64,000 bases of DNA from a virus, in IMG/VR virus record IMGVR_UViG_3300023174_000057, positions 102,765 through 166,764 of that record. One strand, given 5' to 3'. The notes under the pieces are model-generated. The model saw only the letters and a program-made list of their open reading frames with translations. It was not told the DNA's origin and searched no databases. Below are positions 1,059 to 32,478 of this stretch, one piece after another. The first letter of the stretch is position 1, and every line of letters begins with the position of its first letter. Both the position numbers and the translations under genes were made by a program.

Positions 1059-1784
1059 ATGTCCTCCCCTCGCAAAGCCTCCAGCCAAGTGTCGTGGTCG
1101 CTCCTCACCGAAGGGGTGACGCAAGCCCGCATCGAGGCGCACCGGGTCCGCCTGTTGGTGGACCGTGCGATGACCCTCGTGGAGACTTCTGTTGCCAAGG
1201 ATCACCTCTGGCAGGTGGGAGGGGACATCATCCAAGGGCTCCCGCAGCGCCTCTCCGAGCTTGAGCGCGCCCTCGACCGCACGAACTACGCCCTCGTCGT
1301 GATGGGCGAGGAGTTCTTGCGGGGGCGCATCGGCATCGACGACCGCACCGAGGTGGACGAGGCCATCAAGACGCACCCCTACGCGGGCGTTCGTGAGAAG
1401 CAGGACTCCGTCGCGGCCCGTGTCGCCACCCGCTACCTCCGGGCGCAGTTCGGTGCCGGGGCGGCTCCGAGCGCCGAGCACTGGTTCTTCGACAACCCCG
1501 AGAAGCGTGAGACTCGCGAGTTCGCGGAGACCGGGGCGCTCTCCAACCTCCCCCCCACGGCTGCGAAGGCCGTGAAGGAGTTCGCGGCTCCCGACCGTTC
1601 GGTGAGCGAGGCCAAGCAGGAGGCCAAGATCGCCCCGCCGCCGCCCCTCAAGATCGAGAAGAAGCCGGGGGGGAAACAGTTCAGCACCCTCAACCGTTTC
1701 CTCGTCGAGACCGAGCAGCCCAAGGCGGGCAAGAAGGTCCCGCAGGGGCGTGAGGACATCCCCAAGGCCAAGAAGGTGCTCTGA
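1059..1784 (+). CDS. Hypothetical virion-associated protein with internal ARVATRYLRA tag
   Basis: 241-aa ORF; TGATG overlap with next gene. Confidence 0.7.
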   Translation: MSSPRKASSQVSWSLLTEGVTQARIEAHRVRLLVDRAMTLVETSVAKDHLWQVGGDIIQGLPQRLSELERALDRTNYALVVMGEEFLRGRIGIDDRTEVDEAIKTHPYAGVREKQDSVAARVATRYLRAQFGAGAAPSAEHWFFDNPEKRETREFAETGALSNLPPTAAKAVKEFAAPDRSVSEAKQEAKIAPPPPLKIEKKPGGKQFSTLNRFLVETEQPKAGKKVPQGREDIPKAKKVL

Positions 1785-17421: not shown

Positions 17422-17766
17422 TCAGAGCGAGGAGTCCTCGTCGGGGTCGTAGGGGCGCATCGGGAACGTCACCACGGCATCGGTGCCCCGGACAGAGAAC
17501 ATGGGGAGTCCGTCGATCTGGTAGTTCTCCATGTCGAGCGCCTCCGTCAGTCGCCTCTCAAAGGAGTACCGCTTGGCTTCCATGACGGTTCGCTCCAGAT
17601 CCCTCGCGGTTCCCGTCCAGTTCGGGAAGGTGAAGGTGAGGGCCGTGGGCGTGTAGGTCACTTCTGGGGTCCCCTTCAACCCGTGGTCGGCCATGAACTT
17701 TTTGGCTACCACAGAGACAGTCGCCGGGACGCTCAGGGCTCGTTTGATCAGTGTTGCGATGGTCAT
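17422..17766 (-). CDS. Hypothetical protein
   Basis: Start at TGATG overlap (MTIATLIKRA...). Confidence 0.6.
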   Translation of the reverse strand: MTIATLIKRALSVPATVSVVAKKFMADHGLKGTPEVTYTPTALTFTFPNWTGTARDLERTVMEAKRYSFERRLTEALDMENYQIDGLPMFSVRGTDAVVTFPMRPYDPDEDSSL

Positions 17767-18080
17767 CACGTCCTCCCGACGATGGCCTTCTTCATGGCGT
17801 CGTTCCACTCGCCCCAGATGGCGTCTCGGGAATCCGAGTCGGTGGTCCCGTAGTCGGAGTTCTTGGCAATCAGCCGCCCGATGGCCTGATAGGCGCTCGC
17901 CACGTTCACAGCGGTCATCGCGATCTCGGCTTGGATCTGCTCCGTGACCTCCTCGTGACCTTCGTAGAGGCTGTAGGGGTTGTCGTCCATCGCCGTCTTG
18001 GTGACCAGCGGGAGGAGTTGGGCGCGGAGTTCCGGGCGTTGGTGGGCCAGACGGATGATTTTGGAACGGAGGTCGCTCAT
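17766..18080 (-). CDS. Hypothetical protein with conserved LRSKIIRLAH leader
   Basis: MSDLRSKIIRLAHQRPELRAQLLPLVTKTA... Confidence 0.75.
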   Translation of the reverse strand: MSDLRSKIIRLAHQRPELRAQLLPLVTKTAMDDNPYSLYEGHEEVTEQIQAEIAMTAVNVASAYQAIGRLIAKNSDYGTTDSDSRDAIWGEWNDAMKKAIVGRT

Positions 18081-18145
18081 GTCCTGTGCCGTGGATAGGG
18101 AAGCTACCGTGACGGTGGCTTCTCTATCCACGGCACAGGGCATGA
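18077..18145. repeat. 34-bp-arm inverted repeat forming a divergent promoter pair
   Basis: Arms 18077-18110 and 18112-18145, 3 mismatches; each arm ends in a start codon. Confidence 0.85.
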
Positions 18146-19269
18146 CCCCTTGTGCTGTCCGTGTCGCCACCCGGTACCTCTCGGCCAAAGTGTGGGGCGA
18201 CCCCTCGGGGATGATCTCCGACTACCGGGGGGCGCTCACAGCCTTCCAGACGGGCCTCACCCGGGTCACCGAGTCCGCCACACAAACTTTCAGCCGCTAC
18301 ACTCCCTCGACCCCACGAGAGCAGGAGATGGTACAGAAGGCGGTGGCGAAGGCGACCCGTGGCGCTCTCTCTCACACGATGGTCCCGCTTATCCAGACGG
18401 CACGTCAGTTGTCCGAGTGGGTGCTCCAGACCCGTGTGATCCCCGCTGGCAAGGCCAAGGCGGTCGAGATGGCGGCACGCTCCGTTCAGAGCATGGCGCG
18501 GCTCCCGCAGGACATCCCCGATTGGTACGAGAAGAACGCTGCCCGTCTCAATCTCCTGCTGGAGGCGGCGTCGTGGCCAGAGAAGTCGGGGGAGGGGGAT
18601 GCCGCGTCACAGGTGGTGACCGTGGGGCCGTTCAAGGTCCACAACACCATCGGCGCGGACGCGAAGCAGTTCAAGGAGATCCAAGGGCTCGTCGAGAACG
18701 CGACTCGCGCTTTGTCCACCACGTTGGACTTCAAGAAAGTTCTCTACGGAGACGTGTACGTCGTCGGGCAACTGCGGCAGTCCCACACCCTCGCTTGGTA
18801 CAAGATTCAGTCGGACGACGTGTACGTTCGGTCCCTCGCCAAGAAGGGCGGGGACGATCTTCACTCTCTCGTCCACGAGCTCGGGCACCGCTACTGGTTC
18901 AAGTCCGCCACGAGCGACCAGAAGCGGAACATCAACATGCTCTTCATGGACCTCGGGACGGCACCCGCGCCGTCCGTGACACGTCCCACGGTCGGTGACG
19001 AGCTCCCTGTGTCCGTGAAGGGTGCCAAAGGCACCAAGTTCATCATCGTGAAGGACGACGGGATGTACTTCACGACGGAGCCCAAGGGCACCTTCCCTGT
19101 CCGTGAGGTCATGCGGCTCATCACCGAGAGGGCCAAGGGCACGGAGACTTTTCCCTCGCAGTACTCGATGACGGACAGTTCAGAGTTCTTTGCGGAGTGC
19201 TTCGCGTTCTACACCCTCGGGCGTCTCAAGCCCGACCTCGCCAAGAGGTTTGAGGAGGCTCTGTCGTGA
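18142..19269 (+). CDS. Zincin-like metallopeptidase with N-terminal RVATRYL tag
   Basis: VHELGHRYW (HExxH) and SQYSMTDSSEFFAECF third-ligand region. Confidence 0.7.
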   Translation: MTPCAVRVATRYLSAKVWGDPSGMISDYRGALTAFQTGLTRVTESATQTFSRYTPSTPREQEMVQKAVAKATRGALSHTMVPLIQTARQLSEWVLQTRVIPAGKAKAVEMAARSVQSMARLPQDIPDWYEKNAARLNLLLEAASWPEKSGEGDAASQVVTVGPFKVHNTIGADAKQFKEIQGLVENATRALSTTLDFKKVLYGDVYVVGQLRQSHTLAWYKIQSDDVYVRSLAKKGGDDLHSLVHELGHRYWFKSATSDQKRNINMLFMDLGTAPAPSVTRPTVGDELPVSVKGAKGTKFIIVKDDGMYFTTEPKGTFPVREVMRLITERAKGTETFPSQYSMTDSSEFFAECFAFYTLGRLKPDLAKRFEEALS

Positions 19270-20087
19270 GCCCGTCGATCAGCAGGGTCGCCACCCGGCA
19301 CCTCATCCGCGTCGCGGCTCGGGACGCTTGCCGCGCCACGTTCCGCACCCGCACGGCGTCGGTGGACCTCACGGAGCGGGTGCTGGTGGCGGTTGCGGAG
19401 GGGGCGTACCTGTCTCACGGCGGGAACGTCCGTGTGGCGAGTCTCCTCTCCAAGCTCGCAGAGCTCGCCACGGCCCTCAAGCGGTTCCCCAACCTCTGGG
19501 AGAAATTGAAAGATCTCCTCGGGATCGAGAGCCTGTCGGACCTCCCGGGCCGGATCAAGGCGCTCCTCCAAGACGCCTACGGGGCGCTCCGCAAGCTCCT
19601 CACCAAGGCGTTTGAGACGTGGCCCCTCAAGCTGTTCACCCTGCCCGAGAGCAAGCTGTTCTCGATCAACAAGCTGCTGGAGGCCCTCATGAAGAGGTAC
19701 CCGCAGTTCGGCAAGTGGCTGGAGGCCAACGTCAAGCCCCGGGTCGATCAGTTCGACAAGTGGCTCAAGCAGCACCTCCCCACGGTCAGCAAGGTGCTGA
19801 TGGTGGGCATCTACGTCTGGCTGTGGATGAACACCACGGAGTTTGAGTGGGACATCAACGGCATCCTCGACGCGGCCACGGGGAACCTGTCCCTCGCGGA
19901 CCTCTTGGCGGGGTTGCCCGGGACCGTCCTCGGCGCGCTCTTGGGTACGCTCAACCTCGGGACGTTCACACTTCTCCCTGCCGCCCTCGCGGCGCGGGTG
20001 CTCTTCCTCCTCGGCAAGCGGTACCTCGTGTGGACGGGTTCGGGCTTCCAGTTCGACGAGGAAGCCCTCAGCGCCGACTTCGGCTAG
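19266..20087 (+). CDS. Hypothetical helical/membrane-associated protein with RVATRHL tag
   Basis: GTGA overlap; hydrophobic C-terminal helices. Confidence 0.65.
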
Positions 20088-20119
20088 TGCGGTATCACCC
20101 CTATCTTTCTCGGGGGGGT

Positions 20120-20626
20120 ATGGCTGACCGCGCCTTGCTCGTTGGGGTCAACACCCCGGTGCCCCGCTCAACGGGTGCGTCTGATGGTCGCCCTGTCCTG
20201 TACTTCGGCTACGGGTCGAACTTGAACGTGCCCATGATGATGGGGCGCGTGCCGCACGCCAAGCTCCTCGTCCCTGCGTTTCTCCCCTACCATCGCGTCG
20301 GGTTCGCGGGGCACAGTCGTCATTGGGGCGGCGGAACGGCGACACTCATCCCAGCGATGAGTGTCGTGCCCGGTGTCCTGTACCTGATGACCCGTGACGA
20401 CCTTCACGAGCTCGACAGGTCTGAGAACACCCCCACGGGCAACCACCGCCACAACGAGTACGTCTACGGCTGGGACGGCACCCGTTACGAGGCGTTCATG
20501 TACCGACAGGGGTCGGGCACCCCGGTCAACCCCCCCGACCCTCGCTATCTCTCGACCGTCATCGAGGGGCGTAGGATGCACGGATTTCGTTACGAAGACA
20601 TCCTACGAGAGGCACGACGCACATGA
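20120..20626 (+). CDS. Gamma-glutamylcyclotransferase (AIG2/GGCT-like)
   Basis: [30 protein letters not shown] motifs. Confidence 0.8.
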
Positions 20627-21228
20627 CCCCCGGCACCCACAAGCTCCCGCCCCTGCCCTACGCCTACGATGCCCTTGAGCCGTGGATGGGCGCGGAGACG
20701 GCGCGGCTGCACCACGGCAAACACCACCAATCTTACGTTGACGGGCTGAACGAAGCTGAAGTCGAGCTCGCCAAGGCGCGGGCGTCGGGCGACATCAAGC
20801 TCGTCCCGTACTGGCAGACCCGGCGAGCGTTCAATGAGGGCGGGCACGTTCTGCACTCGATCTTCTGGCATTGTATGTCGCCCGACGGCGGCGGGCTTCC
20901 CACGGGCAACCTAGCCACCCTGATTGACCGGGACTTCGGCGGGTACAAGGCGTTCCGCCGTGAGTTCGTCGCCACGGCCAAGGGCGTCGAGGGGTCGGGC
21001 TGGGCGGTTCTCGTACTCAAGCGCGGGATGCGCGGTGGACGCCTAGAGGTGGCACCCGTTCACAATCACGAGAACCGTGCCCTGTGGCAGTCACAGGTGC
21101 TGCTCCCGATGGACGTGTGGGAGCACGCCTACTACCTCGACCACCAGAACGACCGGGAGGGCTGGGCCAACACCTTCCTCGATCACTTGGTCGATTGGTC
21201 CTACATCGAATCAAGGGTAAAAGCATGA
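20623..21228 (+). CDS. sod: Fe/Mn superoxide dismutase
   Basis: LPPLPYAYDALEP, HHGKHHQSYV, GGHVLHSIFW, GSGWA, DVWEHAYY. Confidence 0.93.
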   Translation: MTPGTHKLPPLPYAYDALEPWMGAETARLHHGKHHQSYVDGLNEAEVELAKARASGDIKLVPYWQTRRAFNEGGHVLHSIFWHCMSPDGGGLPTGNLATLIDRDFGGYKAFRREFVATAKGVEGSGWAVLVLKRGMRGGRLEVAPVHNHENRALWQSQVLLPMDVWEHAYYLDHQNDREGWANTFLDHLVDWSYIESRVKA

Positions 21229-21935
21229 GCACTCTTCGTTCTAAGGTCATTCGTCTGGCGCACCAGAACCCCGCCCTCCGTCCGCACCTTCTGCCCCTCC
21301 TTCGAGAGAAGCGCGCAGCGGGGCAATGGAGGGAGGTGTCCCCTCGGGGATTGTCTCAAGAGACCCTAGATAGGGTCTGGGACATGTACAAAAACAGCTA
21401 CGCCAAGATCGGTCTCAAGGTCTCGTCCATCGGTGAGATGGTGTCCGAGTATGATGCTTGGCGTCTGGCTTACGATGGAGAGGTGCCCGTAGCCTTTAGC
21501 GTGGGGACCAAGACCTCGTTCGGCGTCAAGAGCGGTCTCTCTGGATCGGATGGGACGCCAGCGGGAAAGGACTCGATCAAGAGCCTCCTTTCTACCATCT
21601 ACAAGCAGCCGGGTTTCTATTCGGAGGTGTCGCACGCCGTCGAGCACATCGCGGCTAAAGCGGGAGCCCCGGCAGTTTGCGCGGTCTACGTTCCCAACAT
21701 CATTAAGAAGCAGATCGAGCCCGCTGACGACGGCATTCACTACTCCAGAATTTTGGGGGGTGTGGGCAAGGTCACCAAAATTCTCGTCGGTCGTCCGAGA
21801 GGTATTCCTACGACGGACTACGACCATCCCGTTTGCCCCATCGGGGACCCATCTCTTCGCACCTCTGGAGAGGTAGAGCCCGACGATTCTGCGGACTACG
21901 CCGCCCACATCGCGTGCCTTCTCTTTCAAGGCTGA
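21225..21935 (+). CDS. Hypothetical protein with conserved LRSKVIRLAH leader
   Basis: ATGA overlap; MSTLRSKVIRLAHQNPALRPHLLPLLREKRA... Confidence 0.75.
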   Translation: MSTLRSKVIRLAHQNPALRPHLLPLLREKRAAGQWREVSPRGLSQETLDRVWDMYKNSYAKIGLKVSSIGEMVSEYDAWRLAYDGEVPVAFSVGTKTSFGVKSGLSGSDGTPAGKDSIKSLLSTIYKQPGFYSEVSHAVEHIAAKAGAPAVCAVYVPNIIKKQIEPADDGIHYSRILGGVGKVTKILVGRPRGIPTTDYDHPVCPIGDPSLRTSGEVEPDDSADYAAHIACLLFQG

Positions 21936-21941
21936 ACGCGA

Positions 21942-22310
21942 ATGCCCCCTCGAAAGAAGAAGCCGTCCACCGCCGCGAGAGGCGACTGCTACGAAGCGGC
22001 TGGGAAGTATATGTTCGAGAACTGTCTGATGGACCCCCAGTGCGGGCTGCGGGTCGTTCACGGAGAGGTCGCTGGGCAGGGGCCGCTAGAAGGCGTCACC
22101 TTCGGGCACGCTTGGGTTCTGGACGGCGACACGGTGATTGACCGCTCGAACGGTCGGAGCTTGCGGATGCCCAAGGTCGTGTACTACGCGCTGGGTTCCA
22201 TCGAGCGCATCGGGAACCTGCACACCTACACCTGGGACGAGGCCAAGAAGAAGATGCTTCAGTTTGGGCACTACGGCCCGTGGGACCTCAAGACCCGGAG
22301 CGGGCTATGA
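21942..22310 (+). CDS. Hypothetical protein, possible transglutaminase/papain-like fold
   Basis: GDCYEAA...HG...HAWV...VID. Confidence 0.5.
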   Translation: MPPRKKKPSTAARGDCYEAAGKYMFENCLMDPQCGLRVVHGEVAGQGPLEGVTFGHAWVLDGDTVIDRSNGRSLRMPKVVYYALGSIERIGNLHTYTWDEAKKKMLQFGHYGPWDLKTRSGL

Positions 22311-22435
22311 AGGAACTGTTCACCCTCCCTTCGGTGAAGCGCGAGCCCGTACCGGCGACGGTGCTGGACGTGCTCCGCGACGGCGGCGGGGAGCCTTCCG
22401 CCCGGAGGGTTGCCTCCCGATTTCTGGGGCGGTGA
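22307..22435 (+). CDS. 42-aa microprotein ending in SARRVASRFL tag (not in ORF track)
   Basis: ATGA overlap, GGAG upstream; MKELFTLPSVKREPVPATVLDVLRDGGGEPSARRVASRFLGR*. Confidence 0.55.
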   Translation: MKELFTLPSVKREPVPATVLDVLRDGGGEPSARRVASRFLGR

Positions 22436-22469
22436 CCCCCTCCGGGCGTAATAGCCCCCGGAGGCCACA

Positions 22470-24938
22470 ATGGCAACGAAGTCAAAGACCCAGACCAACA
22501 TCACCAAGTTCGCTCTCCGTAACTTCAAGGGCACCCCCACCCGCTACTTCCGCTGCGAGGCGGAAGACATCACCGCGAAGGCGACCGTCGAGGTTCGCAA
22601 GCCTTCGCACCACATCCTCGTGATCGACCGTTCGGGCTCGATGTACGGGGACATCGGGGACGTGAAGGGCACCGTCGAGAAGCTCCTCACCCTCTCCGAG
22701 TTCCGCGATCCGACGCTGAAGGTGTCCCTCATCTCCTACTCGTCGCAGGGCGACGTGAAGCTGCACTTCAGCAAGGTGACGGTGGAGGACGTGATGCGGG
22801 CGGGCTCCCCGTACCTCGGTGAGATCCGCAGCATTCACGCCACGGCCCTCACCTGCATCTCGCAGGGCCTCGCGATGGCAGAGACCATCGTGGACGATGC
22901 CGATACGACGTGCGTGACGCTTCACACGGACGGTTTCGCCAACGACCGGAGCCCCACGGCGGAGGCCCGCGACATCAAGGCAGCGGTCGCGAAGCTCAAG
23001 ACGCACCCCAACCTGTTCGCGAACGCCATCGGGTACCGGGACTACTGCGACTACAACCTGCTGGCGAGCATCAGCAACTCCCTCTCGGGCGTGTGCGTGC
23101 AAGCCAAGGGCATCAAGGCCGTGTACGAAGCGGTCTACAACACCACGAAGCTCCTCGCGGGCACCCTGTCCCCCGCCATCGAGGTGTCTCGTGGCAAGGC
23201 CGACTACGCCATGTTCGTGTCCCGCAGCGCCCGCAAGGTGCTGGGGATGACTGACACCTTCACGGTGCAGGGGCTCTCGCCCACGGACGACAAGACGGCG
23301 TACCGCCTGTTTGAGATCACGGCCAAGGACTACGCCGACCTCGACGCTCCCGTGAGCGGCGAGAACGCCCCGGTGGAGCCTGTCCTCGCCTTCGCCCGGA
23401 CGCAGATCTCGGCGGGCAACCTCAACGCGGCCAAGTACGCCCTCGTGTCCACCCGGTGCGGCGAGCTCCTCGGGAAGCACTCACGCGCCCTCGTGGCGAG
23501 TGACATCGCGGCGATGGCTGACGGCACGGAGGGGTACCTGTTCGACCGCGTCCCGTTCACCCCGTCGAACGGCTACGGGCTCGGTGCCACGGGGCCTTCG
23601 GTGCTCACGGTGCTCACCTACCTCAACGGGCACACGGACACCCTCTCGGTGGACCTCCCGACCTTCTCGTCGGGCTACAAGCGGCGCGGGGTCAAGCGCA
23701 TCCCCGGCACGCGCCTCGCGGACGGCACGGTGGAGGAGCCCACGGTGTCCTCCAAGGTGCGCGAGGGCGGGGACGGATGGGTGAAGGTCAACAGCTTCGA
23801 CCTCAACCGCAACACGGCCAGCATCAATATGCTGGTGAGCCAGCCCATCGACCTGTTCCCGAAGGGGTCGTCCCAGCGGGTGGCGAGCGTGGCGGGGGTG
23901 TCCCTCGACGATCTCAAGAGCTTCAACAACTACACGGTGGTGGGCGACGGGATGCTCAACGCCTCGTCTCTGCCCCTCCGCACGTCGGATCAGAAGGTGA
24001 TCGTCGGGCTCGCTTCCCTCGGGCTCCACCTCGCCAATGCCAAGGCGGGCCAGCCCTTCACGCTCGACCTGTCGGGCCTCCCGCTGGTGGACTACGACCT
24101 CAACGTGGGCGGGGTGGACCACACCACGGTGACGCGCCTCGCGCGCCTCACGGTGCTGTCCAAGATCCTCAACGGCATGGTGAAGGGCGACGCGAGCGGT
24201 CTCACCTCGGAGCAGGTGGACGAGCTCAAGAAGCACTACCTCACCCCGTCGATGTACTTTTCGCCGCCCACCACCACGGAGTACGCGGTTCTCGCGGACG
24301 CCATCGCCACGGGCAAGGTGGACACCAAGCTGTCCTACAAGGTGGACCTCGGGACGCCCGACATCACGGGCACGGGCAAGCTCAAGAGCGGCAACGAGTA
24401 CCTCCAGCGGCGCTTCACGCTCACCTTCATGGGCAAGGACGTGGAGAAGCCGACGCTGGACTACATCACCCTCACGGACTCGACGTGGGGCATCAAGAAG
24501 CTGTCGGCGCGGACGACCCTCGACGCTGTGGACGAGCTCTCCTACCCGATCTACGAAGGGATGCTCGGGCTGGGCGACGGCAAGGTGCTGAAGGATCTTC
24601 TGAAGGGCGTGGGGTGCGTGGACCCGGACCGTTTCCTCGCGGACCTCAAGGGAGTGAACGCCTCGGAGGCCGTGCGAGAGGCCATCCGGTTCGTGGAAGC
24701 AGCCATCGAGGCCGTGTATGAGACGGTTCGCCCGCTGGCGTTCTACGTCGGCGCGACGGGGCTGGTGCCCGACTCCCTCGGGGCCAAGGCGATGACCGCT
24801 GAGGAGTTCGCCACGGCGTACCCCAACGCCAAGCTCTCCAAGGCCGAGAAGGAGGAGGGCAGCTTCCACGTCCTGCCTGACAACACGGTGCTGACCGTGT
24901 ACGTCAAGGGCGAGTTGTTCAGCCCCTCGGCCCACTGA
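22470..24938 (+). CDS. von Willebrand factor A domain protein
   Basis: MIDAS motif VIDRSGSM, plus T and HTDG; GGAGG RBS. Confidence 0.8.
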   Translation: MATKSKTQTNITKFALRNFKGTPTRYFRCEAEDITAKATVEVRKPSHHILVIDRSGSMYGDIGDVKGTVEKLLTLSEFRDPTLKVSLISYSSQGDVKLHFSKVTVEDVMRAGSPYLGEIRSIHATALTCISQGLAMAETIVDDADTTCVTLHTDGFANDRSPTAEARDIKAAVAKLKTHPNLFANAIGYRDYCDYNLLASISNSLSGVCVQAKGIKAVYEAVYNTTKLLAGTLSPAIEVSRGKADYAMFVSRSARKVLGMTDTFTVQGLSPTDDKTAYRLFEITAKDYADLDAPVSGENAPVEPVLAFARTQISAGNLNAAKYALVSTRCGELLGKHSRALVASDIAAMADGTEGYLFDRVPFTPSNGYGLGATGPSVLTVLTYLNGHTDTLSVDLPTFSSGYKRRGVKRIPGTRLADGTVEEPTVSSKVREGGDGWVKVNSFDLNRNTASINMLVSQPIDLFPKGSSQRVASVAGVSLDDLKSFNNYTVVGDGMLNASSLPLRTSDQKVIVGLASLGLHLANAKAGQPFTLDLSGLPLVDYDLNVGGVDHTTVTRLARLTVLSKILNGMVKGDASGLTSEQVDELKKHYLTPSMYFSPPTTTEYAVLADAIATGKVDTKLSYKVDLGTPDITGTGKLKSGNEYLQRRFTLTFMGKDVEKPTLDYITLTDSTWGIKKLSARTTLDAVDELSYPIYEGMLGLGDGKVLKDLLKGVGCVDPDRFLADLKGVNASEAVREAIRFVEAAIEAVYETVRPLAFYVGATGLVPDSLGAKAMTAEEFATAYPNAKLSKAEKEEGSFHVLPDNTVLTVYVKGELFSPSAH

Positions 24939-24945
24939 CCCCTCT

Positions 24946-24961
24946 CGGTAGCCCCTTTATC
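24946..24961 (+). promoter_or_regulatory. Representative copy of putative phage late promoter CG(G/T)T-N6-YYTAT(C/A)
   Basis: Also at 5092, 7537, 18113, 18094-18109(-), 20090, 25719, 32515, 32501-32516(-), 37688, 37731. Confidence 0.65.
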
Positions 24962-24975
24962 CCCGCGAAGGGTGT

Positions 24976-25449
24976 ATGGGCACCCTTCGCACCTCCCTCA
25001 TCCGGCTGGCTCATCAGAACCCCAGCCTCCGTCCTCATCTTCTCCCCATCCTCAAGACGGCCCGGAACTCGTTTGAGTTCCTCCTGTCCGTAGGGGTGAA
25101 TCACGACATGGCGGATGCCGTGCGGATGGACCGGGGCGGGTCCACCGAGAGCAACGCCGACGAGAGCTACGTCGAGCTCGTCCAGTACTCCCACCATGGG
25201 ATCAAGAACTTCTTGGACGGCGAGCGGGTAGGACGCTCGGTTCTCAAGGTCAAGCGGATCGAGACCCAGCGTCGGAAGCTCACCCTGCTGATCGAAGCGT
25301 CCCCTCCCCCGGCGACAGAGGATGAAGAGGCCGTTCTCTACGGGGCCGAGAACCTCTTGGTGGAGGTCCTCCGTGAGGAGTTCAACCGCTACGGCGGCGA
25401 GTGGCTGTACCTCGACGTGTTGCCCGAAATCTCCGTCGAAGTCCTTTGA
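24976..25449 (+). CDS. Hypothetical protein with conserved LRTSLIRLAH leader
   Basis: MGTLRTSLIRLAHQNPSLRPHLLPILKTA... Confidence 0.75.
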   Translation: MGTLRTSLIRLAHQNPSLRPHLLPILKTARNSFEFLLSVGVNHDMADAVRMDRGGSTESNADESYVELVQYSHHGIKNFLDGERVGRSVLKVKRIETQRRKLTLLIEASPPPATEDEEAVLYGAENLLVEVLREEFNRYGGEWLYLDVLPEISVEVL

Positions 25450-25724
25450 CGGTGGGGGTCCGGGTCTCGGTGAAATTTAAGACCCACACGGACGACCGCC
25501 TCATCCCAGAGGGCTTCCTCGTGCGCGAGCACGACGAGGAAGCCCTCGACCCGGCCATCCGTGTCACGGGGTGCCGTTGGGTCGCACGCCACGAAGAAAT
25601 CCACTCTCCGTGCGAGTGGCACTCGTGGCATCAGTCCTACCCTGCTGCCGTACTTGCCGCCCGGATTCACGCGGGCCAGCCCTGCATCGGGACGGAGGGG
25701 CGACGGAAGCGCCGTGCGCGGTGA
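25446..25724 (+). CDS. Small hypothetical protein (start uncertain)
   Basis: Fills gap; TTGA overlap with upstream stop. Confidence 0.35.
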   Translation: MTVGVRVSVKFKTHTDDRLIPEGFLVREHDEEALDPAIRVTGCRWVARHEEIHSPCEWHSWHQSYPAAVLAARIHAGQPCIGTEGRRKRRAR

Positions 25725-25751
25725 CGCGCCTATCACCCGTGGAAGGTGGAC

Positions 25752-26051
25752 ATGGCAACGAGCAAAGCCGTAGATTGGTTGGAGACAGGGTGGAAGGTGC
25801 TGGCCGTTCTGGTCATCCCGCTCCTTGGGTTGGGCGTGTCCATGTACACGGACGCTTCTGTAACCCGCGAGAGGGTCATTCAGATCCAGCATCGTCTCGA
25901 CGAAGATCGCACACAGATCGAGTCGGTGAACACCCGGATCAACCAGATCGCGCTCACGGTGCAGGACACCAATGGGCAGATCCGCGAGCTCCGCACGGTG
26001 CTGGACGTGATCCGATCCCAAGTGACCCGTTCCTCGGAGGCTAGGCCATGA
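25752..26051 (+). CDS. Single-TM coiled-coil membrane protein (possible lysis accessory)
   Basis: VLAVLVIPLLGLGVSM followed by heptads. Confidence 0.55.
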   Translation: MATSKAVDWLETGWKVLAVLVIPLLGLGVSMYTDASVTRERVIQIQHRLDEDRTQIESVNTRINQIALTVQDTNGQIRELRTVLDVIRSQVTRSSEARP

Positions 26052-26338
26052 GTTCTCACCGTGTGCTGGAGGTGATCCTCGGCGTCGTCACCCTCGTTTC
26101 TGTCGTCTCTGTCCCGGTCCCGCGTCGGTCCCCTGTGATGGCCCCGTCCAAGGTCCATGTAGACGTTCAGCGTATCGAGGAGTTGCACCGGGTGTCCCAA
26201 GCGCAGCGCGCCGACGTTGCGCGTATCACCCGCGACACCCAAGCTCTCGCTGACCTCTTGCGGCAGCGCGACGGTGGTACGGTGCTGAGGCCCGACACCC
26301 GGGCACCGGAGAACGAAGAGTATGAGTGCAGCCAGTGA
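26048..26338 (+). CDS. Small protein with N-terminal hydrophobic segment
   Basis: ATGA overlap; VILGVVTLVSVV. Confidence 0.45.
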   Translation: MSSHRVLEVILGVVTLVSVVSVPVPRRSPVMAPSKVHVDVQRIEELHRVSQAQRADVARITRDTQALADLLRQRDGGTVLRPDTRAPENEEYECSQ

Positions 26339-26603
26339 CATCGCGAAGAAGCTGACCGACGACGAGAACAAGCAGATCACGGGGCTCCACCGACAGGCCC
26401 AAGAGATCGTCCACGCCATCGGCCAGACGGAGGTTCGCAAGGCGAAGCTCCTGTCCCAACTCGCGGACGTGGAAGAGCAAGCGCAGGGGGTGATGAACTC
26501 GGTGGGGGCACGGTTGGAGCTCCCGCAGGGCGTGCCGTGGCACATCACCCCGGATGGCAACGTCGTCGTCGTGGACCCCAAGACGGGCCAGCCCGCGCAG
26601 TGA
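26322..26603 (+). CDS. Small coiled-coil hypothetical protein
   Basis: 93 aa, good codon bias. Confidence 0.6.
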   Translation: MSAASDIAKKLTDDENKQITGLHRQAQEIVHAIGQTEVRKAKLLSQLADVEEQAQGVMNSVGARLELPQGVPWHITPDGNVVVVDPKTGQPAQ

Positions 26604-26612
26604 TGGTGACCG

Positions 26613-27071
26613 ATGGCGAAGTTCGCACAGCAAGAACTTGAGGCCATCGGCAAATCGTGGATCAAGTACATCAAGCAGGAAGCCAAGAAGGACGCGGCCA
26701 AGAGCAGCTACGTCCCGCGCTCGGGCGATTTCTACGAGAGCTTCTCGTTCACCGTAGACCGGGGGGTCATCATCCTCTACTCCACCTACGAGTGGCTTGA
26801 GATCATCACCAACGGCACGCGCGGCAAGTACAAGATGCCGTGGCTCACGCAGGAGCGTGGGGTCCACGTCGTGCCCATTTGTCAGCAGGACGGCACGATG
26901 GCCTTTCGCACCGCCCCGCTGACCGTGGGCAGGGCGTGGGTCCACCCCAAGATCGCAAAGCACACGTTCATCAACCGCGCCTATGAGCGCGCGGTGCAAG
27001 ACCACCTCGACGCCCTTGTCACACGGATCGTTGACGATGCCGCCACCACAGCAAGCAAACGGAAACGGTGA
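26613..27071 (+). CDS. Putative neck/tail-completion protein
   Basis: EIITNGT...WVHP...HTFINRA pattern reminiscent of HK97 gp10-like proteins; context. Confidence 0.45.
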   Translation: MAKFAQQELEAIGKSWIKYIKQEAKKDAAKSSYVPRSGDFYESFSFTVDRGVIILYSTYEWLEIITNGTRGKYKMPWLTQERGVHVVPICQQDGTMAFRTAPLTVGRAWVHPKIAKHTFINRAYERAVQDHLDALVTRIVDDAATTASKRKR

Positions 27072-27624
27072 GGTCACCATCGTGGCCCTGACGGACCTCG
27101 TGGTCCTCCCCGACCTCGGGCTGAGGTTGACGAGGGGGTCCAAGATCGTGGTCCCCATGTCTGCTGCGTTGAAGTCTCGGGATCTCTCCAAGGCCAAGGT
27201 GGACGGCATCGTGGCCACGCAGACCCTCCGCTCCGCTGCGATCCGCGCCCAAGAGAACGTGTCCTCGGACACGGTCACGTCTCAAGCTCCCCGGCACAAC
27301 CCGCTGGACCTGATCCCCCTTCTCGACGCTCTCGCAGTTCTCACGGAGGAAGTCCGTGGGCTGCGCCGAGACCTCGCCCGGGCACCTGCCCCAGCCCCCG
27401 CTCTCGACCTCGCCCCCTTGGTGGCGCAGTTGCAGACCGTGGCGGCGGCGAGCCCGGTGAGGGCGGCACCCTCCGTGGCGCTCCCCGACGAAGCCGTGTT
27501 CATCCCCTCCAACCTCACGGGTGGGGACCTGTCTGCGAGTCTCAACGTCACGTCGGAGAGCAGTGACGACCCCGGTCTCGCAGACGCAATGCGGGCGCTC
27601 AAGGCGGCAAAGAAGAATCGGTAG
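27037..27624 (+). CDS. Hypothetical protein
   Basis: About 195 aa, typical codon usage. Confidence 0.6.
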   Translation: MPPPQQANGNGEVTIVALTDLVVLPDLGLRLTRGSKIVVPMSAALKSRDLSKAKVDGIVATQTLRSAAIRAQENVSSDTVTSQAPRHNPLDLIPLLDALAVLTEEVRGLRRDLARAPAPAPALDLAPLVAQLQTVAAASPVRAAPSVALPDEAVFIPSNLTGGDLSASLNVTSESSDDPGLADAMRALKAAKKNR

Positions 27625-27715
27625 GGTATCGGGTACTTCGTCTCTGGGAACGTGACCTCAACGAAAACCGTGACCGCTGCGTGCAAGCAATCAAGACCGC
27701 ATTGGGAGTGCTGTG

Positions 27716-29926
27716 ATGGCCGGAAAAGACAAGCAAGATCAACAGGTTGGGGCGGGGTTGGACGTGGGTACCATGAATGTGGTCGCGGCGAGGAAGTCCT
27801 CGTCGGGGGTCGAGACCCGTCGTGTGCGCGACGCCTTCTTGGAGCTCCCCGTGGAATCCAAGAAGATGCTGAAGCTCTCGAACGTGAGCTACGTCGAGCG
27901 CGCGGACGAGCTTCTCATCCTCGGTGACGCCGCGATGGACACGGCGAACATCTTCGGACGGGAAGCGCGTCGTCCGTTGTCGGCGGGCTTGGTGAGCTCG
28001 TCGGATGTGGACGCGATGGAGATCCTCGGGCTGCTCATCAAGAACGTGCTGGGCGAGCCCAAGGTGCCCAACGAGCACTGCTATTTCTCGGTCCCCGCCG
28101 CCCCCGTGGACAAGCCCGGGCAGGACGTGATCTACCACCGTGGGGTGCTGGAGAAGATCGTCCGTGAGTGCGGGTACACCCCCACGGCGGGCAACGAGGC
28201 GATGGCGATTGTCTACGCTGAGACCGCCAAAGAGAACTTCTCGGGCATCGGCATCTCGTTCGGTAGCGGGATGACCAACTGCTTGTCGGGAGACACGAAG
28301 GTTCCTCTTCTTGATGGAACCGAGAAGACGATGGAGGAGTTGGCGAACGGGGCTGCGGGCGAGTCTTTCTGGGTCTACTCCAGCACTCCCGAAGGTCAAA
28401 TCGTTCCGGGTCTAGCACACCACCCCCGACAGACCGGAGTGCAACCCGTTCTCCGCGTCCACCTCGACGACGGGACGCATTTCGACTGCACCCGCGACCA
28501 CCGGGTGATGCTTCGGGATGGGAGTTTCCTTGAGGCGGGAGACCTCGCGCAGGGAACGAGCTTGATGCCCTTGTACCGTTATCGGACGAAGTTCCGCACC
28601 AATTCCTATCAGTTTGTCAAGGACAACTCGACGGGGAAGTGGGTCAGCGAACATCGTGCGGTTATGGAGCACGTTCTTGGTCGTCCTCTTCTGCCCGGAA
28701 AGCAGGACGAGGTGATTCATCACCGGAACTACTGCGGGACGGATAACCGCCCTGAAAACCTCCAAGTGATGTCCAATCGAGAGCACCGTGAACTCCATGA
28801 GAAGCTCGGAAAGGGAAACAGGGATCGGACTCTCGGGAAGACGTGGGAGACGTTGTACGGCCCGGAGCGAGCATCGCAAATGAAGGCGAAGCTCAAAGCA
28901 TCTCGGAACGAACCTGAAGCACGCGCTGCCATTCTGTCTGGAGCGGCGCGGGGGTCGGCGCGCATGGTGGAACTCCGCAGCGGGAAGACTTGGGGCGAGT
29001 ATTTCGGTCTAGAACGGGCAGAGGAGATCCGTGCCCAGATGTCGCTCCCCAATATTCGTGAGAAGATGCGGGTCGGGGCAGCGAAGGGTCGAGCCGCGTG
29101 GGCTGGAGAAATCACAGGAAAGAGACTCTCAGATATTTACGGTGACGAGAAGGCCGCAGGGATCAAGTCCAAGCAATCCGCCGCCAAGAAGGGACTCTCT
29201 CTCGCGGAGATCGTCGGGGACGAAGCGAAGGCCCTCGAAATCCGTAAAGGGCTGTCCGCATCCCGTATGGGGAAGGCTGGAAAGTACGAGAGGACTCCCG
29301 AAATCAGAGCGAAGATTGCGGCATCCCTGCGGGCTCGCAAAAACGTCCAGCTTGAAGCCCCCCACAACCACAAGGTTGTTAGCGTGGAAGACCTCGGAGT
29401 CACGGTGCCCGTGTACGATCTGACTGTTGACGAGCATCACAACTTCGCGTTGTCTTGCGGGGTTTTCGTCCACAACTGCGCCCTCGCGGTCAACACCATC
29501 GAGGGGCTGTCGTTCTCCGTGGGGCGCGGCGGCGATTGGATCGACGGCGGTGCGGCCAAGTCCATCGGCAGCACTGCCAGCCGCATCTGCGCCATCAAGG
29601 AGAAGGGTGTGGACCTGAACGCCCCGCAGGGGCGCGAGCAGGAAGCCCTCACGTTCTACTACAAGAACTTGATCGAGTACTCCATCGACCAGATCGCCCT
29701 TCAGTTCGCGAGCGTGCAGGGGAAGTTCACTCTCCCGAAGCCCGTTCCGATCATCGTGTCGGGGGGTACTTCCAAGGCGGGCGGGTTCTTGGAGCTCTTC
29801 AAGAGCGTGTTCGACCGCAAGCGCAAGCGGTTCCCGATTGAGGTGAGTGAGATCCGCGCCTCTACCGACCCGCTCAACGCGGTCGCGAACGGGTTGCTCA
29901 TCCAAGCGATGCAGGAGAGCGAGTGA
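27716..29926 (+). CDS. Actin-fold ATPase (MreB/FtsA/ParM superfamily) interrupted by an intein
   Basis: GLDVGTMN (phosphate 1), NEAMA, GISFGSGMTN|...|CAL (phosphate 2), GGDWID, IVSGGTS. Confidence 0.85.
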   Translation: MAGKDKQDQQVGAGLDVGTMNVVAARKSSSGVETRRVRDAFLELPVESKKMLKLSNVSYVERADELLILGDAAMDTANIFGREARRPLSAGLVSSSDVDAMEILGLLIKNVLGEPKVPNEHCYFSVPAAPVDKPGQDVIYHRGVLEKIVRECGYTPTAGNEAMAIVYAETAKENFSGIGISFGSGMTNCLSGDTKVPLLDGTEKTMEELANGAAGESFWVYSSTPEGQIVPGLAHHPRQTGVQPVLRVHLDDGTHFDCTRDHRVMLRDGSFLEAGDLAQGTSLMPLYRYRTKFRTNSYQFVKDNSTGKWVSEHRAVMEHVLGRPLLPGKQDEVIHHRNYCGTDNRPENLQVMSNREHRELHEKLGKGNRDRTLGKTWETLYGPERASQMKAKLKASRNEPEARAAILSGAARGSARMVELRSGKTWGEYFGLERAEEIRAQMSLPNIREKMRVGAAKGRAAWAGEITGKRLSDIYGDEKAAGIKSKQSAAKKGLSLAEIVGDEAKALEIRKGLSASRMGKAGKYERTPEIRAKIAASLRARKNVQLEAPHNHKVVSVEDLGVTVPVYDLTVDEHHNFALSCGVFVHNCALAVNTIEGLSFSVGRGGDWIDGGAAKSIGSTASRICAIKEKGVDLNAPQGREQEALTFYYKNLIEYSIDQIALQFASVQGKFTLPKPVPIIVSGGTSKAGGFLELFKSVFDRKRKRFPIEVSEIRASTDPLNAVANGLLIQAMQESE
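28280..29476 (+). mobile_element. Cis-splicing intein (399 aa) with HNH endonuclease and NUMOD-like repeats
   Basis: CLSGDTKV start; CTRDH block B; IHHRNYCGTDNRPENL; VYDLTVDEHHNFAL..GVFVHN|C. Confidence 0.93.
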
Positions 29927-30192
29927 TGGAGCCCGCCCCGTGCGACTACTCGGCCCTGTCCGACCGTGGCGACACCCCCCCATGCTGGGGTGAGGTCACC
30001 CTCGTCGAAGAGGTTGAGATGTCGGGCGGCGACCGTGTGGCCGTCCGAGCTTGCGGTGGGCACCGGGGGATCACACATCACGGGCACTACCTTGAGGAAG
30101 GAGCCCCGGTATCGCCCGAGGAGGTGGGGGTTCCCGAAGAATTGACCGCCCTGTGGGATGATGTCCCCGCCAGTTTCTTCACCGACCTCTGA
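29923..30192 (+). CDS. Small hypothetical protein
   Basis: 89 aa, GTGA overlap. Confidence 0.45.
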   Translation: MMEPAPCDYSALSDRGDTPPCWGEVTLVEEVEMSGGDRVAVRACGGHRGITHHGHYLEEGAPVSPEEVGVPEELTALWDDVPASFFTDL

Positions 30193-30198
30193 GGGCTC

Positions 30199-31317
30199 AT
30201 GTACTACTTCCTGACCACGGCACTGTCTCGGCGCGTTGTGCAGGAGCTCCGCGCGTTCTGGGCTACGCACCCTCGGTACCAAGACTTGGTGGACAACATC
30301 CAAGGGAAGTACTCGTTTGAGCAGCGGCCTCAGTACGGGATCGTCGTCAAGGTCGGCGCGGCCAACCAAGTGCAGCTATCCCCCGACAACTTCGTCGGGA
30401 CCGTCCAGAGCTACGTCACCCTCGCGCGCATCCCGGGCTACACGGGGCTGTCCTGCGAGTGGGTGCGTGAGGACAGCCTCGCGATCAAAGCCAATGGCGG
30501 GCGGTTCCCCACGCTTCCGGGCACCTACTACATTGAGATGACGGAAGACGATCAGTTCTACGTTGACCCGCTGCTGGAGATTCGCAACGAGCGCCTCACC
30601 ATGACCACCTCCAGTGAGGGGGTGCTCCAGCAGGTGCCCTACGAGAAGTCACTGCGACTGATCGAGGTTCCCGGTGGGCGGCTCTACGTCGAGGGGACCG
30701 ACTACACCATCGGAGACGACGGTGTGACCGTGTACCTGCGGGAGCCCCTTCTCATGGGCACGGCGCTGTCGGCCACCTACCGCTACACGGGGGAGACCAC
30801 CGGGCCGTGGGAGGCCAAAGCCCTGTACGGCTACAACAAGGCCATCCCGGGTTGTGTGCTGGTGTTCGGTCGGCGGGCCAAGAAGGGCGACCGCTTCGCG
30901 GTGCTCGTCACGGACACCCGTGAGGACTCCTACTTGGAGTACGGCGGTCGGTGGGACCTCACCGTGGACATTGATATCATCGCCCGTGACGTGTACGCCC
31001 AGCGGGAGATCGCGGACCTGACGGCGATGTACCTCTGGTCGTCTCTTCGGCCCAACGTCATCAACGAGGGCATCGACATCTCGGAGGTGTCGATGGGCGG
31101 GGAGACGGAAGAGGTGTTCGACGAGAACGCCGACGACTACTTCTACAACTCCACCATCTCGATGACGGCGCAGACGGATTGGTTCAGCTTCGTGCCCATC
31201 GTCCCGCGCATTCTCTCCGTGGCGCAGACGGTGACCGGGCTCCCCAAGGAGCTTGAGATCCGTGCCTTCCGCGACCCGTTCTTCGGTGCCAAGTTCTCTT
31301 ACGAGACGGTGTCCTGA
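30199..31317 (+). CDS. Putative tail terminator/completion protein
   Basis: 372 aa upstream of sheath; WDLTVDIDIIARD...REIADL pattern; function from context. Confidence 0.55.
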   Translation: MYYFLTTALSRRVVQELRAFWATHPRYQDLVDNIQGKYSFEQRPQYGIVVKVGAANQVQLSPDNFVGTVQSYVTLARIPGYTGLSCEWVREDSLAIKANGGRFPTLPGTYYIEMTEDDQFYVDPLLEIRNERLTMTTSSEGVLQQVPYEKSLRLIEVPGGRLYVEGTDYTIGDDGVTVYLREPLLMGTALSATYRYTGETTGPWEAKALYGYNKAIPGCVLVFGRRAKKGDRFAVLVTDTREDSYLEYGGRWDLTVDIDIIARDVYAQREIADLTAMYLWSSLRPNVINEGIDISEVSMGGETEEVFDENADDYFYNSTISMTAQTDWFSFVPIVPRILSVAQTVTGLPKELEIRAFRDPFFGAKFSYETVS

Positions 31318-31745
31318 TGCCCACCTATCGTTTCCAGTGCGACTCCTGCGGGTTGTCCTTCTCGGCGCGGGCGCGCATGGATTCCTTGGAGGCCCCCTGC
31401 GAGTGCGGCAAGCTCGGCAAGCGTACCCTCCCCCAAGGGGTGAACGTCACGGTGTCGGGAGGCGGGACGGACCTGCTGAAGGACACCGGGCTCACGGGGA
31501 TCGACTACAACTTCGACCGGGCGGTGGGGGAGTCGTCCAAGAAGAACTGGCAGGGCATCGCACAGCGCCAGCGGGAGAAGCTCGACCTCGTGCGTGCCAA
31601 CGGGGTCACGGGTTGGGATCTCTCCCGCACCCCGGACGGTGGTTACCGGGTGATGGACTCTGATGAGCGCGCCGCCAGCGAGCAATCTCGTGGGTTCCAT
31701 TTCAAGGTCATGAAGCACGCGAAAGACAAGGGCCTACTGAAGTAG
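31317..31745 (+). CDS. FmdB-family zinc-ribbon protein
   Basis: MPTYRFQCDSCG...CECG. Confidence 0.7.
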   Translation: MPTYRFQCDSCGLSFSARARMDSLEAPCECGKLGKRTLPQGVNVTVSGGGTDLLKDTGLTGIDYNFDRAVGESSKKNWQGIAQRQREKLDLVRANGVTGWDLSRTPDGGYRVMDSDERAASEQSRGFHFKVMKHAKDKGLLK

Positions 31746-31758
31746 ACCCCCGGTGGGG

Positions 31759-32478
31759 TCAGCGGTCGGTGCGGGCTCCGCCAGCGATGACCCAAGCAGC
31801 CCACTGGCTGATCACCTCCGGGGTGATCTTGGAGATGAGCTCCGCGTCCTTCATCTTCCACTTCTCGTCGCGGGGGTCGAACACGTTCAGCAGAACGTCG
31901 CGGTTCCCCAGCGCGATGGCGCGGTTGGGGGCTCCCCCCAGACCCATGCCACGAAGACGGCTGGGGTAGAAGAACTCACCAGCCTTCCCAGACCGATCAC
32001 CGACAGACACGAGACCAGCGTCCACGAGCATCTGCTTGATCTCGACGCGGCGATCCGACACGCGGGGCGCGGTGGGCTTCTGCCTTCCGGTCGCCGGGGG
32101 GCGGAGCATCAGTTCGCGGAGAATGTCCTTGTGGCGCATGACATCCCCCACGGTGGTGGCGTGGAGGAGGTCCGGTGCCTGTTCCAGCATCGCTTCCAGA
32201 AATGCCTTGGCATCCGCGAGGGTCTTCGGTCGGGTCGTCACGGCTTGGCCCGAGGGCGTGAAGGTGACGGTCCACCCGCTGCGATCCAAGCTCTTGTAGA
32301 TCGACCACGGCCCGACCACCATCGCATCGAGCTCTTGGGAGCCTCCGCCCGTGATCGGGATCGTGATCTTCTCCCTGCGGAAGTTCAAGTCCGCCGTCTT
32401 GAGCAGCGGGAGGATGTGCGGGCGAAGTGCGGGTTGGGCATGGGCCAGACGGATGATCTTGGAACGGAGAGTGTTCAT
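31759..32478 (-). CDS. Hypothetical protein with conserved LRSKIIRLAH leader
   Basis: MNTLRSKIIRLAHAQPALRPHILPLLKTA...; GAGG RBS. Confidence 0.75.
   Translation of the reverse strand: MNTLRSKIIRLAHAQPALRPHILPLLKTADLNFRREKITIPITGGGSQELDAMVVGPWSIYKSLDRSGWTVTFTPSGQAVTTRPKTLADAKAFLEAMLEQAPDLLHATTVGDVMRHKDILRELMLRPPATGRQKPTAPRVSDRRVEIKQMLVDAGLVSVGDRSGKAGEFFYPSRLRGMGLGGAPNRAIALGNRDVLLNVFDPRDEKWKMKDAELISKITPEVISQWAAWVIAGGARTDR

Follow-up and report, generated by a model that had tools for sequence, protein, structure and literature searches.

Tag 1 in the window and in the contig

The 64,000-nt stretch of DNA analysed here (the window) is the final 64 kb of IMG/VR record IMGVR_UViG_3300023174_000057 (positions 102,765 to 166,764), a viral contig of 166,764 bp with a CheckV completeness of about 39%. 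Four of its genes begin with nearly the same peptide, which is called tag 1 below. Copy A (17991-18080, minus strand) is the N-terminus of a 104-amino-acid (aa) protein encoded at 17766-18080 and copy B (21225-21317, plus strand) that of a 236-aa protein encoded at 21225-21935. Copy C (24976-25062, plus strand) opens a 157-aa protein (24976-25449), and copy D (32392-32478, minus strand) a 239-aa protein (31759-32478). A profile was built from these four leaders and run on the six-frame translation of the window. Each of the four copies matched it at an E-value of about 1e-20 (6e-21 for copy A), and beyond them no stretch of the window scored better than an E-value of about 1. The original prediction, an earlier reading of this DNA, had described four near-identical leaders on proteins that diverge beyond them. 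All four open reading frames (ORFs) were located and their products have zero pairwise similarity outside the tag, so both statements held. The count of four was too low for the contig as a whole, where 15 copies are present.

Genes on the contig were called by a crude method based on GC content at third codon positions (GC3). Among the 15 copies, 13 are N-terminal (two of these with a GTG start) and two lie inside long ORFs. One internal copy is found between an N-terminal domain and a bactofilin-like beta-solenoid, the other 330 residues into a 432-aa protein. Tag 1 spans about 26 residues, with the consensus LRSKVIRLAHQNPxLRPHLLPLLKxA. The mean column identity of the 15 copies is 72%, and L4, R5, I9, R10, L11, A12, H13, P16, R19, L23 and P24 are invariant. 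In the four tagged window proteins no Pfam or PHROG family covers the tag at E<=1; on some relatives the only matches were to DUF6193, all of them below threshold. A literature search that included the IRLAH core found no description of the motif.

Selection acts on the peptide

The tag DNA was compared in 105 pairs. Identity is 87% at codon positions 1 and 2 and 44% at position 3, and the proportion of synonymous differences (pS) is 0.56 against 0.15 for non-synonymous ones (pN), giving a pN/pS of 0.27. The codon-position pattern therefore places the conservation on the peptide and not on the DNA, as had been proposed from the many synonymous differences between the four window copies. Only one neighbouring pair of tags, 96% identical at the nucleotide level, resembles recent copying.

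Distribution of tag 1

A profile search of 1.84 billion representative proteins returned 3,371 clusters at E<=1e-3, nearly all of them viral, and 529 at E<=1e-10. In IMG/VR there are 74 tag-1 loci; tagged ORFs number 6-14 per genome in five genomes of 248-485 kb. A set of 185,579 prokaryotic species genomes contained the tag only on four short contigs of metagenome-assembled genomes. A tblastn search of 50,697 deposited phages with the tag gave a single match, an uncultured 485-kb record, and a megablast search of the window region against deposited phages gave no match.

About 80% of the copies stand at the N-terminus, yet tags inside proteins, at C-termini or in several copies per protein are common. 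Of 142 tags found at viral loci, 108 are preceded by a methionine within six residues and seven are C-terminal, while the remaining ones are internal or lie behind alternative starts. Many database proteins hold 2-6 copies. Among the best 150 database proteins 33 are tagged at both ends, and 55 tags lie within eight residues of the C-terminus. One 63-aa protein (P0076) consists of two tags and nothing more. These counts show that tag 1 is a virus-restricted and abundant module, preferentially but not necessarily N-terminal. The idea of an N-terminal leader thus fits the majority of copies and fails for the frequent internal, C-terminal and multi-copy cases.

In the multi-tag proteins P0001, P0004, P0005, P0010 and P0112, which are rich in lysine and glutamate (K/E-rich), additional short motifs recur between the tags: GCEKLPEGPMRDNC, MSPEDKKKW, GEVPEAFKKQW and P[FY]M.G.FT. 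They suggest a wider kit of short peptide motifs.

Predicted structure and cargo proteins

AlphaFold2 models were inspected for the families of copies B and D. In the copy-D family the tag is modelled as two helices (residues 2-14 and 16-26) at a predicted local distance difference test (pLDDT) score of 58-69. A 7-residue coil linker follows, and then a cargo of two domains at pLDDT 85-90. The copy-B model (pLDDT 84) has tag helices at residues 4-14 and 16-27, coil at 28-33 and a cargo at pLDDT of about 90. Both models thus suggest a helix-Pro-helix element for tag 1, tethered by a short stretch of coil to a cargo that folds independently of it.

The cargos themselves are diverse. Foldseek searches with the copy-B cargo gave 59 PDB matches at E<=1e-3, and all those listed belong to the GNAT superfamily, including protein N-acetyltransferases; as modelled, this cargo has a GNAT acetyltransferase fold. 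The copy-A cargo is helical and has no family match. For the copy-D cargo Foldseek found nothing in the PDB at E<=1e-3, the best VIA hit had a Z of 5.9, which is under that tool's stated noise level, and the only BFVD matches were small uncharacterised phage proteins. When the tagged proteins of the contig were compared all against all by BLASTP with the tag masked, no similarity was detected except one weak repeat match between two proteins that match the DUF5710 model, one above and one below threshold.

Among 122 tagged ORFs on viral contigs, Pfam recognises ART-PolyVal (3), DUF2958 (2), RNA ligase, pentapeptide repeats, 2H-SAK, DUF7007, DUF7717, DUF3846, WGR, SH3, RelA_SpoT and DUF5710. 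The best 112 database matches add RelA_SpoT, pentapeptide, WGR and LRV cargos. It had been anticipated that a profile scan of this genome and of related large phages would return many unrelated cargos, and it did. Most tagged proteins are 90-450 aa long and have a single cargo domain.

The recognisable cargo domains overlap the repertoire of polyvalent proteins. The latter include ADP-ribosyltransferase (ART), 2H phosphoesterase, RelA/SpoT, GNAT and zincin peptidase domains, the zincin being their commonest, hub domain (PMC5512222). Iyer et al. 2017 predict that virions package polyvalent proteins and inject them along with the phage DNA (PMC5512222). Bactofilin-like beta-solenoid repeats were seen in two proteins, encoded at window 7703-10162 (plus strand) and at L001:5914-7119; one of them bears an internal tag 1.

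A second tag and its exchange with tag 1

A shorter peptide, RVA[ST]R[YF]L (tag 2), was searched for as [RK]VA[STA]R[YFH]L. It occurs 11 times in the called genes of the contig, against 0.12 occurrences expected from shuffling. It is sited at N-termini, C-termini and domain junctions, with more than half of the occurrences (6 of 11) in the interval from the portal to the capsid gene. Other tag-bearing contigs have it too.

Two protein families indicate that one tag can take the place of the other. In the copy-D family tag 1 is kept in 16 of 17 homologues, and the most divergent member, the one that lacks it, ends in ..VASRYL... In five members a domain of about 90 aa is inserted between tag and cargo, and a second K-T-A stands directly before the cargo. 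Tag 1 is present in four members of the copy-B family; one member has two copies and one none, and in two members a peptide of the RVARRYL/RVARLY type stands at the N-terminal position of tag 1. These two independent swaps therefore suggest that tags 1 and 2 are alternative labels of one system.

Within the window tag 2 occurs in four proteins. The first gene of an operon that starts at 18142 (18142-19269, plus strand) encodes a 375-aa protein with RVATRYL at residues 7-13 (18160-18180). The next gene of that operon (19266-20087, plus strand) encodes a 273-aa protein with RVATRHL at the same residues, 7-13 (19284-19304). In a 51-aa ORF (22280-22435, plus strand) RVASRFL (22406-22426) ends two residues before the stop codon, and a 241-aa protein (1059-1784, plus strand) has an internal RVATRYL (1419-1439). 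The 375-aa protein contains HELGH and EFFAE motifs typical of zincin metallopeptidases of the lethal-factor/M90 type. The protein atlas returned ATLF and Peptidase_M90 with scores of 0.88-0.92, to be read as leads only, and neither Pfam nor the PDB confirmed the assignment (there was no PDB sequence match). Judged by its motifs, this zincin-like protein could be a processing protease or an effector.

The Lys-x-Ala frame

The leaders had been described as all ending in K-x-A. On the contig this is accurate for 10 of 15 copies, where K-x-A follows the tag immediately; in four more it is displaced by 1-4 residues. Across 458 tags, lysine is found at position +1 after LLPLL in 44-61%, alanine at +3 in 44-54% and alanine at +4 in 31-38%. 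A similar pattern precedes internal and C-terminal tags, with lysine at -4 in 35-49%, alanine at -2 in 34-45% and serine at -1 in 38-47%. Lys-x-Ala thus borders tag 1 on either side. An arrangement of this kind would be compatible with proteolytic excision or release, although the -1 residue is, besides, typical of a helix cap.

The most divergent copy-D homologue, already mentioned for its lack of tag 1, begins exactly after K-T-A. Because of this start point and the symmetric frame, cleavage at Lys-x-Ala, with release of the cargo by a maturation protease, can be tentatively suggested as a possibility, albeit a doubtful one. K-x-[AS] units also recur in charged scaffold-like proteins, and in three genomes the capsid protein has I-K-T-A-A-G at residues 19-24. 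Since those proteins are rich in lysine and alanine, this recurrence is kept as a lead only. Pfam models of the prohead proteases S77 and S78 had no match in the contig or in five relatives, and the S77 control genomes likewise gave none above threshold.

Head module

PHROG models place the portal gene at genome positions 87138-88823 and the major head protein gene at 98757-99638, just upstream of the window; HK97-type capsid models of Pfam had no match in the contig. The portal is followed by two proteins that have tag 2 at their C-terminal end and by a topoisomerase-IB polyprotein. Then come the genes of a K/E/A-rich protein, of a further protein with tag 2 and of a 469-aa protein that is conserved; the last two before the capsid encode a scaffold-like acidic protein and a protein of 232 aa. 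Two scaffold-like proteins of this block map to genome positions 93558-94265 and 96260-97843. This gene order is conserved in the 485-kb and 437-kb relatives. The major head protein (293 aa) is 94% and 78% identical to its counterparts in the 485-kb and 437-kb phages, respectively, and is far more conserved than its neighbours: the corresponding values are 76% and 53% for the portal and 56% and 34% for the 469-aa protein.

The topoisomerase IB is a 1,248-aa protein of eukaryotic type (genome 89812-93558) with tag 2 at residues 79, 405 and 1235. The tag therefore stands before the domain, after it and at the C-terminus, an arrangement suggesting that the enzyme is virion-associated and made as a polyprotein.

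The 469-aa protein (genome 94836-96245) has more than 1,154 homologues, on contigs of up to 536 kb. Invariant histidine, serine and aspartate residues, a Cys/His cluster, an acidic variable linker and a conserved C-terminal helix characterise it, and it has no Pfam or PDB sequence match. By its position only, it is a candidate novel prohead protease. An origin of tag 1 from the C-terminal helix of this protein (..TLIRLG/A..), or covariation with it, was considered and rejected: hhalign aligned only five residues, at an E-value of 0.19, and across genomes the Ala/Gly variation of the tags does not follow that of the helix.

Several observations connect tag 1 with this module. The top multi-tag database protein and the K/E/A-rich protein of the portal-capsid block have a 47-aa block in common (49% identity, E-value 3e-12). 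In the 485-kb phage one tag-1 gene lies between the scaffold-like gene and the capsid-proximal gene. The complete 437-kb phage has three tag-1 ORFs directly upstream of the 469-aa homologue, one of them degenerate and one with a C-terminal tag, and two more directly downstream of the capsid gene.

Elsewhere on the contig, PHROG matches comprise two sigma-factor-like proteins, a GroEL-like chaperonin, ribonucleotide reductase, a UvsX-like recombinase, a clamp loader and an intein-bearing ThyX. The large-terminase family is matched by two separate proteins.

A promoter-like motif and the arrangement of the tagged genes

The original prediction had placed three of the four window genes directly behind a putative late-promoter motif and the fourth in an operon behind one. 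The motif, YTATNCC[CAG][CG], is not over-represented contig-wide (24 matches against 21 expected), but its placement is non-random: 11 of the 24 matches lie on the coding strand 9-30 nt upstream of a start codon. Of the genes behind these 11 matches, five carry tag 1, two carry tag 2 (one of these in the head module) and three are untagged; the eleventh is the scaffold-like head gene. An additional copy of this type stands ahead of a 1,486-aa structural-looking gene in the window. Copies A and C are directly behind the motif and copy B is in an operon behind one, as had been claimed; copy D has a weaker version only.

Ahead of copy C the motif reads TTATCCCCG (24957-24975, plus strand); it starts 19 nt before the ATG, has hairpin potential and lacks a Shine-Dalgarno sequence. 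The motif is often followed by a GC-rich hairpin, and it runs right up to the start codon without a Shine-Dalgarno sequence. Sites of this type were recorded at window positions 24957 and 54408, and at genome positions 15783, 16176, 17561, 18540, 19063, 27366, 34321, 67936, 88826 and 93537. From its sequence and placement the motif looks like a phage-specific promoter whose transcripts would have very short leaders or none.

Gene A and the gene at 18142 are divergent, and their start codons are spanned by a 34-nt inverted repeat (18077-18145, 91% complementary) with a motif of the YTATNCC type on each arm. The repeat resembles a twin control region for divergent transcription. Gene B closes the operon that starts at 18142; its ATG overlaps the stop codon of a superoxide dismutase-like gene (20623-21228, plus strand; named from its translation only), to which it is translationally coupled. 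A gamma-glutamyl cyclotransferase-like ORF, recognised by its sequence pattern only, lies in the same operon at 20108-20626 (plus strand), between the tag-2 genes and the dismutase-like gene. A motif common to tagged genes and to some head or structural-looking genes hints at late expression.

A Volactin-family actin gene at 27713-29926 (plus strand) is interrupted by an intein with an HNH endonuclease. Its N-terminal part is 56% identical to the intein-free Volactin (PF25216) of the 437-kb relative.

Possible head loading and competing explanations

Tag 1 is a portable module, selected as a peptide, independent of position, found only in viruses and attached to unrelated cargos. Most likely it serves as a docking label. 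The best reading of this module is that it loads accessory and effector proteins into the phage head, to which a probability of roughly one half is given. It is preferred because of the cargo repertoire, the tag genes in head operons, the concentration of tag 2 between portal and capsid, and the link between multi-tag and scaffold-like proteins. Further indirect support comes from the promoter-like motif common to tagged and head-module genes. The portable address tag on interchangeable cargos that had been proposed is well supported by the selection on the peptide, the unrelated cargos, the turnover of tags and the confinement to viruses; its strictly N-terminal character is not.

A clade of uncultured huge phages attaches the small, basic and amphipathic tag 1 through a short flexible linker to many unrelated accessory and effector proteins. 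Under the head-loading reading, the tag would bind one common receptor inside the assembling procapsid, for which the lumen of the capsid protein, the scaffold core and the portal region are candidates. Tagged proteins would then co-assemble into the head and later be delivered with the DNA. The K/E-rich multi-tag proteins may act as scaffold-like connectors, the Lys-x-Ala frame may be the site where a maturation protease frees the cargo, and tag 2 (RVA[ST]R[YF]L) may serve this system as another label. Receptor, packaging, cleavage and injection are inferences.

Several findings weigh against head loading. Among the 50,697 deposited phages no cultured phage with tag 1 was found. Internal, C-terminal and multiple copies are unlike a simple cleaved N-terminal leader, and a virion role is not obvious for some cargos, the bactofilin-like solenoid among them. 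No S77, S78 or HK97-type Pfam match was obtained, and the 469-aa protein of the head module could not be shown to be a protease. Head core genes are present in only 10 of the 74 tag loci, none of the 15 tag-1 genes of the contig lies inside the head module, and 8 of 68 tag-1 genes fall within 5 kb on either side of the portal-capsid interval against about 5.5 expected, which is not significant. The head linkage of tag 1 is thus recurrent but without statistical enrichment. Finally, the very strong conservation of the tag across divergent phages also fits a conserved host partner.

Such a partner is the first alternative. The tag might bind a conserved host hub, such as RNA polymerase, a DnaK-like chaperone, the sliding clamp or a protease adaptor, and would thereby recruit many phage effectors to a single host machine. 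The tag is conserved to a very high degree across phages of very different base composition, short linear motifs are typically found at such terminal and internal sites, and a leucine-rich core with basic flanks resembles generic chaperone-binding motifs. However, a host target common to cargos of such unrelated enzymatic activities is not obvious, the clade may have diverse hosts, the multi-tag K/E-rich proteins have a block in common with a head-module protein, and tag genes are inserted in head operons. A host hub is considered unlikely.

The tag could instead dock proteins onto another intracellular phage structure, either a Volactin filament or a replication or assembly compartment, with the multi-tag proteins as cross-linkers. 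Exactly one Volactin-family actin is encoded in each of six tag-bearing genomes tested (the contig and five huge phages), and in the window its gene lies among the four tag-1 genes. Some cargos are cytoskeleton-like solenoids, and binders of the actin cleft are typically short amphipathic helices. Yet all genomes compared carry the tag, and the actin gene may simply mark the clade; linkage between Volactin and tag genes is loose in most genomes, and the cargo repertoire and the copies in head operons point elsewhere. Docking of this kind comes second among the alternatives and is unlikely as well. It has a variant, given a similarly low weight and ranked after it, in which tags 1 and 2 do not load heads but are interchangeable zip codes of a cytoplasmic sorting system. 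Dozens of effectors and enzymes would be docked in this way onto a phage-built structure, either a Volactin cytoskeleton or a compartment under its control. By analogy, this would be a bacterial-virus counterpart of the targeting signals of eukaryotic organelles.

Self-association is improbable. According to this explanation the tags bind each other, multi-tag proteins form a network or condensate and single-tag proteins are its clients. Many proteins do have 2-5 tags joined by charged low-complexity linkers, and some have little else (the 63-aa protein with two tags). In both single-chain AlphaFold2 models, however, the tag is a lone hairpin of moderate confidence, and a network of this type could coexist with head loading as a scaffold core.

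A role as a degron or stability signal, by which the tag would set the time when accessory proteins are turned over, is highly improbable: the mostly terminal position of the tags and the alanine-rich junction behind them would suit it, but internal and multiple copies, a structured module of 26 residues and a second, swappable tag concentrated in the head module fit it poorly. A repeat acting as a DNA or RNA element (a recombination cassette or a translation-start element) can practically be dismissed, as the one neighbouring pair with 96% identical DNA stands against the codon-position pattern (44% at position 3 against 87% at positions 1 and 2; pN/pS 0.27) and against tags inside ORFs and at ORF ends.

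Significance and comparison with known systems

If tag 1 is the head-loading label favoured above, sequence alone would suffice to list the protein arsenal that an entire clade of phages of 0.25-0.5 Mb injects. This arsenal would comprise thousands of proteins, most of them of unknown function, and would include ADP-ribosyltransferases, alarmone synthetases, acetyltransferases and DNA-mimic-like repeat proteins. By means of this compact peptide, proteins of choice could then also be packaged in large capsids. The two interchangeable tags and the Lys-x-Ala frame make the receptor and the maturation protease directly testable. New here are the swaps between tag 1 and tag 2, the polyvalent-type spectrum of cargos, the two-sided Lys-x-Ala frame, the map of the head module across the clade, the negative enrichment test and the promoter-like motif common to tagged and head genes.

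The capsid-targeting sequence (CTS) of phage T4 directs the internal proteins IPI-III and Alt into the prohead; it is about 10 residues long, strictly N-terminal, and cut after glutamate by gp21. Tag 1 is similar in being a short peptide common to unrelated proteins, an ADP-ribosyltransferase among them, and in T4 the cleavage site is adjacent to the peptide. Packaging of Alt into the T4 head has been described (PMC5512222). In contrast to the CTS, tag 1 has about 26 residues and two helices and is also found in internal, C-terminal and tandem positions. Its junction is Lys-x-Ala and not x-x-Glu, and no match of the gp21 type (S77) was found here.

The coat-binding helix-turn-helix at the C-terminus of the P22 scaffolding protein and the C-terminal targeting tail of the protease of HK97 bind the procapsid interior and can carry foreign cargo. 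Tag 1 is likewise predicted to be a basic two-helix element, with Arg5, Arg10, His13 and Arg19 invariant, and the charged multi-tag proteins look scaffold-like and have a block in common with a head-module protein. The P22 and HK97 elements, however, occur once per phage on the scaffold or protease, whereas tag 1 is found on 6-16 genes per genome.

Encapsulin cargo-loading peptides are short, lie at either terminus or internally, are sometimes repeated and are read by a shell of the HK97 fold. As in tag 1, the peptide is attached to unrelated cargos by a flexible linker, modelled for tag 1 as 6-7 residues of coil. The encapsulin peptides differ in being shorter, extended, of a Gly/Ser/Leu type, cellular and encoded beside the shell gene, whereas tag 1 is helical as modelled and virus-only, and its genes are dispersed across the genome.

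In its cargo repertoire the tag-1 system overlaps with polyvalent proteins and MuF-effector fusions (ART, 2H phosphoesterase, RelA/SpoT, zincin peptidase and GNAT domains), for which packaging and injection are also predicted (PMC5512222). These proteins, however, combine 2-15 disparate domains in a polypeptide or are fused to a virion domain (MuF, portal). The tag-1 system has mostly one domain per small protein, with a common peptide on each. Provided that the tag does load heads, many small effectors bearing one address would form a delivery route distinct from the giant polyvalent fusion.

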